A stretch of 64,000 bases of DNA from Octopus vulgaris (lineage: Eukaryota), in assembly GCA_951406725.2 (NCBI GenBank), contig OX597826.1, positions 3,596,001 to 3,660,000 of the forward strand. The letters run 5' to 3'. The notes beneath the pieces were generated by a model that had not been told where the DNA came from, made no database searches, and worked only from the letters and a program-made list of their open reading frames with translations. Position 1 is the first letter of the stretch. Each line of letters starts with the position of its first letter. Positions 39,891 through 60,778 of the stretch are shown here, in pieces. The translations under genes and the position numbers were made by a program.

Positions 39891-40228
39891 AAATTAATTG
39901 TTATCGCCATATTAATATGGCATTCTTATAGATATAAGAATAATCGCTGCCGCTGGTCAGCTCCATGAGGCCACCGCCTTAAGATAGATATTGATACACG
40001 ATCTGTATCCATTATAACCTTCGAACAAGGGCTGACCTCCCTTGTTATAATGGATACAGATCGTGTATCAATAGCTATCTTAAGGCGGTGGCTTCATGGA
40101 GCTGACCAGCGGCGGCGATTATTCTTATATCTATAAGAATGCCATATTATATGGCGATAACAATTAATTTCCAGTATACGCTGTCGTAATCTCTTTTATA
40201 GAGACTTAGTAATTTTAATATTTCTATT
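39891..40228. repeat. asymmetric fold-back element in (TA)n
   Basis: Arms 39891-40018 and 40044-40170 nearly identical in reverse complement; unpaired extension to ~40228. Confidence 0.9.
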
Positions 40229-41149
40229 ATATATATATATATATATATATATATATATATATATATATATATATATATATATATATACATGTTATATATG
40301 TGTGTATGTATGTAAGTAAAAATATTTTTTTATTTTATATGGATATGTGTTTGTGCATGTTCAATCTCAGCATGATGTTCTGCAGAAACATATTCATATA
40401 AGTGAATTGAAGGTTTACTTGGTAACTTTTGGACGACGAAAATACAGATAAACAGAAAAAAATTTGTAACCAAGGGGTGCAGATTTTCGATTGTGTATGT
40501 TTTTATGTCTCTGCGTGCGCACACACAGATAAACGCGTACATATACGTTGTTGTGAGTGCATGATTGCATATGTGTGTATTTATGGTGTATAACACTGTG
40601 TCTTGTTTTAATAAGAAGGGCAATGTATGAATGGGATCTATATAGAAAATCAAGAGCGATATTTTTTTACACGAAGCAATTTTGTTCAAATTCTACTCCC
40701 ACAAATATTTGCTTCAAAACATCTTTTCTTTCAAGCTAAGAAGGGGAAGGATAGTACCCTTGACATTTTAGAGTAAGTGTGAGCGTGGTGCGGTTTCTCC
40801 GATTATTGCATCGATTTGGATTTGACTGAAATCTCCATGTCCACTTTAACATATTGCAACACGGGCGACTGACTGACTTTAACACCTAAGGTGAGGAACG
40901 GTATCACCCACCACAAATTTCGGCAACAAGACTTTTGCCTACCTAAAGAAACAGAAAACATAATTTGCCTTAGAGGATTGGTACTTCGATCGGCCACAAA
41001 AAAAAGTCATTTGTGTTGTATATTTATTATACTGATTACATCGTTTGAATATTATCCAGATGCTCTGATTAAATTTCAAATCAGGTTTGAAAAGGTTAAA
41101 TATTTCTTCCCTTAATATTCAGTGTACATTTGATACTGTTGTCACACAA

Positions 41150-41355
41150 ATGGCACCCGGCCGGCGGCATGTAAAAGCACCCATTTCACTCTCTGAGTGG
41201 TTGGCATTAAGAAGGTCATCCAGAGGTAGAAAACCCATGACAAATCAGCCTGCAATGTGGTGCAACCTTCCAGAGCTTACCAGCCCTGTTCAAACCGCCC
41301 AACCTATTCCTGCGTGGACAACGGACGTTAAAAGATGATAATGATGATGATAATG
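41150..41355 (+). mobile_element. 3' part of a further SINE/LINE-tail family with (GAT)n tail, followed by (GAA)n
   Basis: GGTTGGCATTAAGAAGGTCATCCAG..GTAGAAAA motif and ...GGACGTTAAAAGATGATAATGATG end. Confidence 0.5.
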
Positions 41356-42254
41356 AAGAAGAAGAAGAAGAAGAAGAAGAAGAAGAAGAAGAAGAAGAAG
41401 AAGAAGAAGAAAAAGAAGAAGAAGAAGAAGGAGAAGAAGAAGAAGAAGATTTTGGTACGTTTTATGCCAAAAACATCCCCTTGTTGAATGTTTAAGAAAT
41501 GCCTGTGAATTTTTGGTTATTCAATAAATGATTAATATATTCACGGTTACAACTGTCATCTCACCTGTCATGTCAGAAATTATATAAACATAGGAAAGTA
41601 TGAAGTTCTGAGATAAGAGAAAAAAATAACGGAAGCTGAAAACAACATAGTGAATGCTAGTGCAAGAGTCGTCAGCGCGTAGGTTTTCTGATCCTGCTGC
41701 GTTAACCCATCCTTTTATTAATTCAGTAAGAAACTACTACTTTAGAGTGGGTGACTGGTAGAGGATATAGAGCATTGAACGAGATATATTGCAGTGTTCG
41801 GCTTTACTTTAGATTCCTTGGGTTGTAGATTTAATTCATTGCTCAGCTAAACATCTGATCCTTCTTTAGTTCTTCTTTAGTGGTGTTCATTCCGTTGGAA
41901 TCATTAAGGCCAGATCAGCCGCTTGAGAATAAGATTCTCCATTTCTGTTGGTGTTCTTGTTTGTCCACGTGTATCTAAAATTGCAGTAATATAATCAATG
42001 TCACGTCAACCGTGGTAATGCCATATAATATACATAGAATTACATTGTATATCGCAACCTTCCATTCTAAGTTTAGAAATACGATAGAGCAATGTAAAAA
42101 AATTATCTTTGTTTAACGTAAAGGTTCAAGTCCTGAGCTAATAGTTTTCTGATTAAATTAAAAATGTAGATTAATGTGGTGAATATTACATCAAGAAAAT
42201 AAAGGGAAAAATAAAATGCATAAGAAAAATAATTAAACATATAACAATAAAAAT

Positions 42255-42580
42255 TATTCTATTGTGTCTGGGGAGAGTCATTTTCTTTTTGTGCCTTATT
42301 ATGTAACCACTCACCGGTAAAATTTCCAAGTTTTTCTTATTTTTATTGTCCTAAAATTTTCCTTGCGTCTTGCAACCTTTTCAATAGTTTAAAAGTATTG
42401 AAAATGTTGCAAGACGCAACGAAAGTTTTAGGAAATAAAAATAAGAAAAGAGTGGAAATTTTACCGGTGAGTGTGTTATATTATAAAGACCAAAAAGAAA
42501 ATGACTCTCCCCAGACACAACGGAATATGCTTCAACACACGAACTCATATAAAGAATCTTGCAAACCAAATCCAAAATCG
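42255..42580. repeat. asymmetric imperfect fold-back element
   Basis: Arms 42262-42386 and 42396-42520; the extension 42521-42580 has a separate homologue at 18430-18487. Confidence 0.85.
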
Positions 42581-44466
42581 AAAAATAAAAATTATAATTT
42601 CTGAACTATCTCAGAGATCTGAGGCATGAGTGAAGATGAGTATTCCTAACTGTAGAGATGTGAGATTTCCACGTACAGTTCAAGGCATACAGTCGCAACT
42701 TGCAAAAAGGCATGTGTCGGTGATATATAATGTGCTTCCTGTATTTGTTTTAAATTCCTAAATAGTCGAGAAAAGACATAGGATCTTGCTCAGACCTCTT
42801 AGATGTTAAAGTCGGAATGAAAGAGCTACAATAGTGCTTGGCTGATATCATTATAGCTGAATGAAAATGCAACTCCCAGGTCAAATATTTGAAACAAAAA
42901 CCTCATAATCACAAGACGAACGCAACAATTTCTATTAATACAATTTTACAAAAGTCATACCGTTTCTTTATTTTACAAAAATCTTACCGCTTCTTTATTT
43001 TAAAAATGCAAATATCTAGGCTAGAAATAATGTCGTCTGTGAGCCAAAACAAGTTCCATTACATTATAAAGCATGATACAAATATTGTAAATTAAGTACG
43101 AAGATAAAGAAGATTTAAAACTGTATATTACAATTAGTAAGTACAAGGTATTTTTAAAACCAAATTATCGAAGATCAATTATATAGTTCGCAAAATATTT
43201 CATATACCAGGTATGTAAAATATGTAATTATACCTACATACCTTCACACATATGTAGGTATATATGTGAGTGTGTGTGCTCGCTGTTATACGCATGCGAA
43301 GTATTATGCATGTATATATAAAAATATATATGTATATATATATATATATATATATATATATATGTATACATATATATGCATACATACATATCATACATAT
43401 GCATGTCATATAAATGTCTACATGTATATGTAGATATATATATATATATATATATATATATATATATATATATATATTGTAGGCATAGCTATATGCATAT
43501 ATATATATATATATATACATACATACATACATACATACATGCATTACATAGATAGATAGATAGATAGATAGATAGATAGATAGATAGATAGATAGATAGA
43601 TAGATAGATAGATAGATAGATAGATAGATAGATAGATAGATAGATAGATAGATACATAGATTGATAGATATAGATATAGATATATACCCACATATACATG
43701 CACTTTTAAGAACCATATATATATATATATATATATATATATATATATATGTCAGAAGCAGAAAAACGAGTCTTGAAATGATATACAGAAATTTTTCAGA
43801 AATTAAACATTGCAAGGTGAGTAATCTACGTGAAAAATCAATTTTTAACCCAAGAATGATGTTGTATTTAATATATTTTCTTTGGCGTTTTGTATTCTCT
43901 ATTTCTTCTATATTGTGTTTTCTGATCATATGTTTTATTTACATTTTTTCATCTATGACTAATGAATGTGTCATCACAAACAGAGAACATGAAAAGGAAG
44001 CAACGTAAAAGTGGAATGACATAGAATACACGTATGTATATCTATGTTAGCATTCACGTTGTTGTGACTGTGAGTATATACATATGCGTGTCTATATCTG
44101 TGTATATATATATATATATATATATATATATATATATGTGTGTGTGTGTGTGTGTGTGTGTGTTTTTGTGAGTATATGTATAAAGTTGATATATATTCGT
44201 AAGTACATCTATCTGAATTTTTATAACTATATGTATTAATCTATACAGCTTGTGTAACTTCATCTATGCGCCTAACTATATAACTAGCTATCTATCTTCC
44301 AATACACACACATAAATATACGCACCCGCACATATACGTATAGATATATATACATATACACGCACAAGTAAACACAGAGATAGAAAACAGCGTGGAAAAA
44401 TATAGTTCTTGAATACCAAAGGTATAGTTATATATTATTTTATTATAGCCGAAAAATATAGTTGCA

Positions 44467-59619: not shown

Positions 59620-59860
59620 CCCCTTTACGCTAGATCATTCAGCAGATTCTCAAAAATGTACAATCTATCTGTGTTTGTTTCGTAGTCGAGTTGGTTCACC
59701 TCTCTCTCGGTTGACCCTGTAATAGTAGCGATAAATGTGGGTCTCCTGCATAAGCTTGTTAACTTGGGCAGCGGGAAGAAATGCAACGGATGCATCCAAT
59801 TTCTCCACCAATTATTACTGAGAGTGTTTTTGCGAGTAGAATTCTGAGGTACCATCTACG
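59620..59860 (-). pseudogene. decayed hAT transposase C-terminal dimerisation region
   Basis: PKLTSLCRR..FIATITGSTERE.NQL....N..R.....LLNDLA resembles hAT P.L..L.R..LTIP.TSAS.ERSFSKL..IK..LRS.M...RLN.LA. Confidence 0.5.
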
Positions 59861-60377
59861 TTTTCTCCTATAAAGAGCAACCGTTATTTAATTGTCCCGT
59901 TGGTTTCCCAAGCGAGAATCAGACAGACTTGACAGTTGACTCAGCCTAAAGAATCTGCCATGCATTACTTTCCTGCGGCATTCTGACCACATGTCAGCAT
60001 TACATACCATCTAGGTATAACTTCCCTAAACTTTCTGCTTGTAGCAAAGCAGTTGAGACGTATGGGTCTCGCTGCGGTTAGAGATTCACGGCTTAGTGTT
60101 ATCACAGCGTGGATTATTGCAGGAAGCACAATTATTATATAAGCACGATTTTTCCGCGCTAGGATCAATGCTATTCCCTAAATTTCAGGTGGAGCAAAGT
60201 CAGAGTTTGTCAAACGCGTTCTAAATTCCCATCACCAAGAACTGACGGGTAATTCTCGCAGAATAATGTTAAATGCGTAGCATGCATAGATATACACACA
60301 CGCACATATACGAATATGCGTGTAAATACATACATATACATACATATATACATACATATATATATATATATATATAT

Positions 60378-60587
60378 AAAGTTAATCCAAGCAAGAAAAC
60401 ACAAAAAAACACAACAACGCGAGGACGTGGAACAAATATAGTATTACTGGACGCTCAGGAAAGAAGGAAAGAAGAAGGGTGTAACGTTTCGAGCGGAGCT
60501 CTTCGTCGGAAATATAGGAGAAGGAACGATCTAGAGAAGGGAAGAGAGAGGAAAAAAATCGCCAACGGTACACACGAGGTCACATTT
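60378..60587 (-). mobile_element. hammerhead-bearing short element family H1, complete monomer
   Basis: Minus strand attt-CCGACGA-agagctccgctc-GAAA-cGTT-acac at 60479-60513; (TA)n flanks. Confidence 0.75.
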
Positions 60588-60610
60588 TATATATATATAT
60601 ATACATAAAT

Positions 60611-60778
60611 ACACATAGAATTTAGAGGATTGACCCCTAAAAGTGGACAGCTGTCCACTTTTAGTAGTCAATCCTCTAAATTTTGTATGTAAAAAACATT
60701 TTAATCTTCGGTTTTTTAAAATGTACTAGACCATTGGTTTTAATTCATTAATATCAATTTCTACCCTTATTGAATTAT
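60611..60778. repeat. asymmetric fold-back element, loopless apex at 60650/60651
   Basis: GAATTTAGAGGATTGAC..CTAAAAGTGGACAG|CTGTCCACTTTTAG..GTCAATCCTCTAAATT, extension to ~60778. Confidence 0.85.

Follow-up and report, generated by a model that had tools for sequence, protein, structure and literature searches.

Asymmetric fold-back elements in an Octopus vulgaris contig as probable truncated 3' ends of Penelope-like elements

Introduction

Penelope-like elements (PLEs) are known to leave insertions in which a truncated copy is joined to an inverted one. Here, we compare such insertions with a set of short asymmetric hairpins (170-340 bp) from Octopus vulgaris. The hairpins lie in a 64,000-nt stretch of the genome (assembly GCA_951406725.2, contig OX597826.1, positions 3,596,001 to 3,660,000 of the forward strand), hereafter the window. 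At a rough probability of 0.8, we favour the explanation that they are dead-on-arrival 3'-end insertions of several PLE families, in which a truncated complementary DNA (cDNA) folded back into a tail-less inverted arm.

The closest described systems are the complex insertions of endonuclease-containing (EN+) PLEs. These are reported with head-to-head inverted copies, a palindromic junction and an extension on one arm, self-priming has been proposed for them, their target-site duplication (TSD) is about 10 bp where visible, and microsatellites serve as targets (PMC3846280, PMC8557442). In particular, PMC3846280 describes an adjacent inverted pseudo-long terminal repeat (pLTR), an optional tail on one of the pair and TSDs of 8-10 bp, and interprets the palindromes at head-to-head junctions as self-priming. 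The text and Fig. 2 legend of PMC8557442 describe an inverted truncated copy, a tail that is often at one end only and targeting to (TA)n; the origin of PLE inverted structures is still called undefined there, and for Penelope-13_HM the listing gives a truncated copy in inverted orientation at the 5' end. Pairs of hammerhead ribozyme motifs on opposite strands, 100-700 bp apart, have been ascribed to truncated PLEs (PMC4209133). In vitro work on the Poseidon element PAc reports two fixed reverse transcription start points that bound the tail, AT-rich targets, cleavage and extension of both strands, and a predicted dimer; hammerhead mutants insert as normal and cleavage is dispensable (PMC11167929).

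An earlier reading made from the sequence alone (the sequence-only reading) had suggested that the hairpins may be an undescribed class of repeats. That suggestion has to be given up, as the pattern is published in these sources (PMC3846280, PMC8557442, PMC4209133). What is new is further families that show it, and these families may already be named in repeat libraries (Repbase/Dfam, O. vulgaris).

Fold-back elements in the window

The window has a GC content of 33.9%, and simple-repeat masking covers 13,330 of its 64,000 bases. Arm alignment and BLAST together recover all six asymmetric hairpins that the sequence-only reading had claimed, close to where it had placed them. They are listed here with the TSD of element B:

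39891..40228, plus strand: element A, with arms 39891-40018 and 40044-40170, an apex at about 40019-40043 and a 58-nt extension to 40228
42258..42583, plus strand: element B, a fold-back with its apex at 42391 and a predicted minimal hammerhead whose U3-A8 core lies at 42398
42246..42257, unstranded: left copy of the B target-site duplication, 12 bp
42584..42595, unstranded: right copy of the B target-site duplication, 12 bp
55777..56000, plus strand: element C, of the D family, with its apex at 55853, probably inside hammerhead helix II
56289..56599, minus strand: element D, with long arm and tail at 56289-56478 and short arm at 56480-56599
60608..60778, plus strand: element E, with a zero-loop apex at 60650/60651 in a palindrome that would fit hammerhead helix III
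44367..44602, minus strand: element F, a decayed head-to-head pair with its apex at about 44518, missed by BLAST and found by alignment

In the masked window, 10 fold-backs were detected compared to 0-1 per shuffle (20 dinucleotide shuffles, 2 fold-backs altogether). One of the 10 is a pair of repeats resembling short interspersed nuclear elements (SINE-like), one is TA-centred, and the decayed element F was not picked up. Fold-backs beyond the six lie at 16253, 17974, 48172 and 58177, together with the SINE-like pair. Since C and D are homologous (z 18.7), the six hairpins represent five families, one more than the minimum of four that had been proposed.

Arm identity differs widely between elements. 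By arm alignment, it is 124/127 in A, 121/135 in B (42255-42390 against 42392-42527) and 35/40 in E (60610-60649 against 60652-60691). BLAST gives 98.7% for the arms of D (56363-56478 and 56480-56594) and 75% over 55794-55909 for those of C (about 55777-55850 and 55857-55925). The long arm of F probably extends to about 44367, beyond the interval of 44440-44590 first assigned to the element. An assembly artefact was ruled out for B, C, E and F, the arms of which have diverged by 12-25% or more. The apex loops of A-E are 0-7 nt, counting a nested hairpin in A.

The flanks were said to be mostly (TA)n. This is true of A, C and D, which have (TA)n on both sides (in A, on the extension side, beyond the extension), and in E the runs are 4-8 nt away; it fails for B and F, and there is no TA run within 700 nt of B. 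A count of the enrichment, suggested as a check, finds a (TA)n run of at least four units no more than 5 nt from 7 of the 12 outer ends, against 1.55% of unmasked positions, a count that is partly circular because the element ends may have been drawn at TA runs in the first place. At B, the TSD encloses the whole unit; a 12-nt direct repeat was reached by 6 of 1500 control window pairs, from which the locus of B had not been removed.

Two fixed ends and a variable apex

End spacing was taken as the distance between the predicted ribozyme cleavage site and the first simple repeat after it. In C, D, E and F it is 37, 30 (up to 35), 38 and 39 nt for the short arm and 109, 103, 120 and 106 nt for the long arm; in E the site itself is a putative one, and in F the short arm finishes in (TG)n and the long arm meets a simple repeat. 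In B the predicted site follows 42428, with the short end about 96 nt and the long end 155 nt past it. For A, E and F, the evidence for two fixed ends is one copy each. C and D offer a comparison within one family: their short ends agree within about 5 nt, and their apices lie 49 nt apart.

We then compared the D long arm with the contigs of four sequencing runs (four samples), which hold 3448, 1726, 704 and 373 matching pieces. Judged by these pieces, the D family is abundant. The results on loose contig ends rest on 24 of 282 entries from short-read contigs, a material that represents hairpins poorly. Among the entries listed, loose ends at 56294 lead into TA repeats (51, 40 and 9 contigs in X3, X4 and X23), and tail-less ends joined to TA, like the short arm of C, occur at 56362-56372 (37 in X3; 18 and 2 in X8; 2 in X23), read as majority consensuses with an agreement of 0.72-1. 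Non-inverted sequence follows at 56474 in contigs of every run (21, 5, 3 and 1). This upstream continuation has no other occurrence in the window. A dip in contig depth at 56354-56367 and a drop toward 56478 were not counted, as they may reflect indels or edge effects and summed depth is not copy number.

Because the D-family contigs share their ends and run on past the apex, and C and D agree, both outer ends are constant within the family and the apex is a truncation point. The tail is optional and present at one end only, so that there are two fixed 3' ends, as seen in C and D, in the loose ends at 56294 and 56362-56372, and in solo tails at 44971 and 18433. The sequence-only reading had predicted a fixed long-arm end with a variable apex and a variable short end. 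The first two parts stand; the short end is instead fixed, within about 5 nt between C and D, and recurs in contigs.

Miniature inverted-repeat transposable elements (MITEs) and Foldback DNA transposons are also short hairpins with TA-rich targets. They have symmetric terminal inverted repeats and a whole unit with a constant centre. Here, on the contrary, the two ends are not symmetric, apices vary from copy to copy (by 49 nt in C/D) and the D family extends past its apex, in line with the earlier claim that the ends are unlike those of MITEs.

The two solo tails are:

44971..45023, minus strand: C/D-family tail on its own, embedded in TA-rich repeats, with the outer end as in D
18433..18486, minus strand: solo tail of the B family (z 11.2), adjoining (TA)n, outside the main set

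These tail-only copies could be very early truncations or deletion remnants of a perfect hairpin.

Hammerhead motifs

Five elements carry, wholly or in part, predicted hammerheads of the Penelope-like type that read outward from the apex; none was found in A. The claim that the turn lies in or near a ribozyme-like core holds to this extent, for five of the six elements. A predicted type I hammerhead is found in the terminal repeat and reads toward the 3' end. It appears complete in D, where the core lies at 56442 and the site after 56393, stem I has 6 bp, helix II is present, and helix III has 4 bp and a one-base loop; it is nearly complete in B and F, which have the core, helix II and the 3' box. 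The B motif has a U3-A8 core, an extra base before helix II and an ATG at the start of helix II; in F, a canonical core lies on the left arm at 44502 (minus), with a decayed copy at 44535 (plus). C holds the 3' half of a Hydra-type hammerhead (55878-55890), and E probably helix III and the site.

On the masked window, a strict hammerhead descriptor gave 2 matches (D and a solo repeat at 18667), compared to 0.2 per shuffle in 30 shuffles. A scan with the helix III half gave 4 matches, 3 of which are in C and D. Minimum free energy folds recover helix II and not the catalytic fold, with z values from -3.3 to +1.5, and are not used as support.

In the five elements that can be scored, the apex precedes the predicted cleavage site by 86, 45, 37, 37 and 5 nt. 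Since the apices lie 5-86 nt upstream, the template was uncut at the predicted site. Moreover, an apex near the hammerhead is to be expected anyway because the hammerhead sits 35-110 nt from the 3' end; five cases cannot separate apex enrichment at the hammerhead from proximity to the 3' end.

A further repeat in the window has a predicted minimal hammerhead and no hairpin:

60381..60590, minus strand: hairpin-less copy of this minimal-hammerhead repeat; three others lie near 6487, 18642 and 19348

As this repeat has four hairpin-less copies, a hammerhead alone is insufficient for fold-back. The four units (6487-, 18642-, 19348+ and 60484-) are about 210 nt long, and their 5' ends adjoin (TA)n some 85-100 nt upstream of the core. 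A common 5' end of this kind is odd for random truncation and suggests a fixed-length non-autonomous unit or a retrozyme-like monomer. Non-LTR retrozymes are head-to-tail tandem units, each with a hammerhead (10.64898/2026.07.22.740005), and self-comparison of the window found no direct tandem copies of our elements.

Comparison with published Penelope-like elements

The likeness to EN+ PLE complex insertions extends to 5' truncation with an adjacent head-to-head inverted copy and a palindromic junction, to the continuation of the D family past its apex in the contigs of four runs, and to the target, with the 12-bp TSD at B and (TA)n at A, C, D and E. The differences from the published cases are that only the terminal 170-340 bp is present here, with no open reading frame (ORF), and that tails are 58-82 nt and not 30-40 (PMC3846280, PMC8557442).

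Within PLEs, C, D, E and F resemble the Hydra clade in spacing. The supplement of PMC8557442 gives lengths and hammerhead positions, from which we computed the distance from site to end for 25 Hydra-clade entries: 10 end 29-47 nt past the site, 11 end 87-152 nt past it, and the remaining four are at 62, 69 and 354 nt or have a 5' motif. For example, Hydra-1_Obim, an octopus family with a (TA)n target, ends 35 nt past the site (PMC8557442). Shared with the published Hydra-clade PLEs are the (TA)n target, a 4-bp helix III with a one-base loop and 3' ends about 35-45 or 90-150 nt past the site. Helix III and the site of D are identical to those in the Penelope-3_HM row, and those of C to the Penelope-16_HM row (PMC8557442); D differs from the clade in a C at position 4 of the core and a longer helix II. 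By hammerhead pattern and (TA)n, C and D fit the Hydra type; by spacing, so do C, D, E and F. B has no such helix III and a longer spacing, and falls outside. Its U3-A8 core and the additional base ahead of helix II are also found in the minimal hammerheads of truncated metazoan PLEs (PMC4209133). PAc also has an ATG at the start of helix II, and the spacing of B (about 96 and 155 nt) is nearer the 85-92 nt taken from the PAc figures, although PAc comes from another host and clade (PMC11167929).

The families are thus most likely, by sequence features, of the Hydra type for C/D, F and probably E, and of the minimal-hammerhead type for B. The putative Hydra-type assignment of C/D and F rests on hammerhead and spacing, and for C/D also on the (TA)n target; the clade itself is defined by protein motifs (RWK, DKT, a CxCX5C linker, no CCHH).

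Weighing the PLE origin

We consider a PLE origin of the hairpins highly likely. Several observations weigh against it, and we collect them here. B, F and two solo copies, at 19348 and 60484, escaped the strict descriptor. E retains just five bases upstream of its putative site. Neither the descriptor scan nor Rfam found a canonical hammerhead in A, and Rfam gave none for D either, nor among the 150 of 341 window matches listed. The tails of 58-82 nt exceed the usually quoted 30-40 bp. None of 14 short motifs from the window matched the supplement of the Craig study, where line breaks may hide matches, and no named family was matched there.

The contigs and the coding sequence add to this side. 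Among the entries listed, there is one strand-change joint (56348 to 56451, in X3 and X4), whose direction is ambiguous, and D's own apex does not appear. A GIY-YIG endonuclease match was found in none of the 121 window frames scanned (of 197 listed, plus one added), and the sole reverse transcriptase matches in these frames are a remnant resembling a long interspersed nuclear element (LINE-like) at 50.9-52.4 kb. Finally, a 60-codon frame from the B hammerhead matched only a 94-aa unnamed copy and a repeat protein, with no link to an ORF. The 94-aa copy stops at the same tail end and belongs to no Pfam family.

An ORF is not expected in such short stubs. As no linked reverse transcriptase or GIY-YIG gene was found in the window, PLE membership rests on hammerhead type, end spacing, tail, TSD and target.

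The best Rfam matches in the window, among the 150 of 341 listed, are sub-threshold microRNA models. A metagenome scan with an 18-base pattern returned 29 loci that match just around the pattern, over at most 31 bases, and were attributed to chance; viral and prokaryote scans gave 0 matches.

How the hairpins may have formed

In the favoured explanation, an autonomous PLE protein (GIY-YIG endonuclease and reverse transcriptase) would nick (TA)n or AT-rich DNA, and reverse transcription would begin at the outer of two fixed start points. After 100-200 nt, synthesis would stall within the structured hammerhead or shortly beyond it. The end of the cDNA would then prime on local self-complementarity, and copy-back would proceed to the boundary of the tail, which is the inner of the fixed points; the second junction would be formed there. 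Ribozyme cleavage is unnecessary for this explanation. Because the junctions are symmetric, with loops of 0-7 nt, they would indicate a folded cDNA that primes itself. Self-complementary sequence lies at the apices. In C the turn is at a 10-bp hairpin within helix II, E turns in the palindrome of helix III, and D has a native TTAA at its apex. The fixed short end points to a boundary defined by the element, either a second reverse transcription start or endonuclease resolution. Taken by itself, the fold-back step is probable, and less firmly so than the PLE origin.

For element A, the balance tips only slightly toward the same explanation. A hammerhead-like reading of A (helix 40053-40069, followed by a palindrome) was rejected, as both core boxes are non-canonical. 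Other origins for A alone, which together we regard as somewhat unlikely, are a MITE-like fold-back DNA transposon with 58 nt of unrelated DNA next to it and a PLE that lacks a hammerhead, for example a Naiad. The missing canonical core and the lack of a second copy in the window suit these alternatives, and Naiads, which have no canonical hammerhead, target (TA)n and occur in octopuses (PMC8557442). Naiads are marked by no canonical hammerhead, a (TA)n target and an N-terminal endonuclease, and A shows the first two. On the other hand, (TA)n encloses A together with its extension, and C and D are enclosed likewise; the motifs of A find no match in the Craig supplement, and the 3' end of Naiad_Obim is unlike that of A by eye.

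For the whole set, the main rival to cDNA fold-back is twin priming by the PLE machinery. In twin priming, a dimer nicks both target strands and two cDNAs from two fixed starts are joined head to head. The fixed short end suits a second start site, PMC11167929 reports both-strand cleavage and extension, two start sites that bound the tail and a predicted dimer, and the opposite-strand joint from 56348 to 56451 may be a non-overlapping inversion, ambiguous as its direction is. Independent truncations, however, should rarely stop at the same base, and yet the loops of A-E are 0-7 nt. We hold twin priming to be unlikely.

A variant gives the hammerhead a part to play as a scaffold for stalling and self-priming and not as a cutter. 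The cDNA would turn at helix II (C), helix III (E) or stem I (B), and the enzyme of the element would close the second junction at the tail boundary. We offer this as a speculative proposal, and a doubtful one.

Repair or replication slippage is very improbable. Here, breakage or folding of (TA)n runs would lead to inverted copies of the DNA next to them, with PLE ends merely as common neighbours. The window does hold a perfect TA-centred palindrome (48172-48249) and, at 26036-26154, a 98% inverted upstream copy between TA runs. In A-F, though, the apex is away from the TA run. The place where the short arm halts is specific to the family and is also seen as an end in other copies, and in B a TSD encloses the whole unit, far from any TA run. 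The apparent repair-type inversions of the window, by contrast, have a TA run at their centre or TA runs around them and duplicate the DNA beside them.

The model of the sequence-only reading, a new non-autonomous class with its turn set by a ribozyme-cut RNA, is the least probable of all. Apices do lie in or near a hammerhead in five of six elements, but every one of the five is upstream of the site, which means that copying went through sequence left uncut. Four copies of a hammerhead repeat lack a hairpin, a hammerhead 35-110 nt from the 3' end would be close to the end of any short stub, and hammerhead mutants of PAc insert unchanged in vitro (PMC11167929). From that model, retrotransposition with a fold-back step, into (TA)n and near a hammerhead, is retained, and the setting of the apex by ribozyme processing is dropped.

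Other repeats in the window

One further decayed fold-back lies outside the main set:

16253..16390, plus strand: fold-back G, decayed, with a short arm that stops 28 nt past a helix III-like motif

Its long arm is not defined (168 nt to the first simple repeat), and a search for TSDs at F and G found none. Short fold-backs also occur at 17974-18064, adjoining (TA)n, and at 58177-58214.

Two structures are associated with TA runs. The perfect palindrome at 48172-48249 is 78 nt long, with a TA-run centre and 35 nt of flanking DNA copied into a long (TA)n, and is a repair product or an assembly artefact. The inverted copies at 25344-25462 and 26036-26154 are 98% identical and come with a short inverted piece of an adjacent SINE-like repeat, each enclosed by TA; the arrangement looks like an insertion into (TA)n that was copied from a template.

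Among the remaining repeats are two abundant SINE-like families with many copies, one of them split by an internal microsatellite (e.g. 401-785, 11826-12203, 13567-13800, 29541-29774 and 47640-47873), and a dispersed 563-nt repeat pair (1646-2208 and 34369-34931) that is 90% identical and in opposite orientation. The LINE-like reverse transcriptase remnant spans 50868-52684 (minus), matches Pfam RVT_1 (E 1.9e-19 and 1.7e-05) and adjoins a TA repeat. A helix-turn-helix frame at 14167-14457 (+) with a weak Tc3 transposase match is a probable Tc1/mariner remnant.

Implications

If the scaffold proposal were true, the thousands of stubs in this genome would be a natural map of the PLE insertion mechanism, and A would represent one more family, in which a non-canonical three-way junction replaces the hammerhead. 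Stubs of this kind are easily mistaken for MITEs or microRNA hairpins. Moreover, with a high-copy family that has two fixed ends and a variable apex, junction counts in one assembly can compare fold-back and twin priming.

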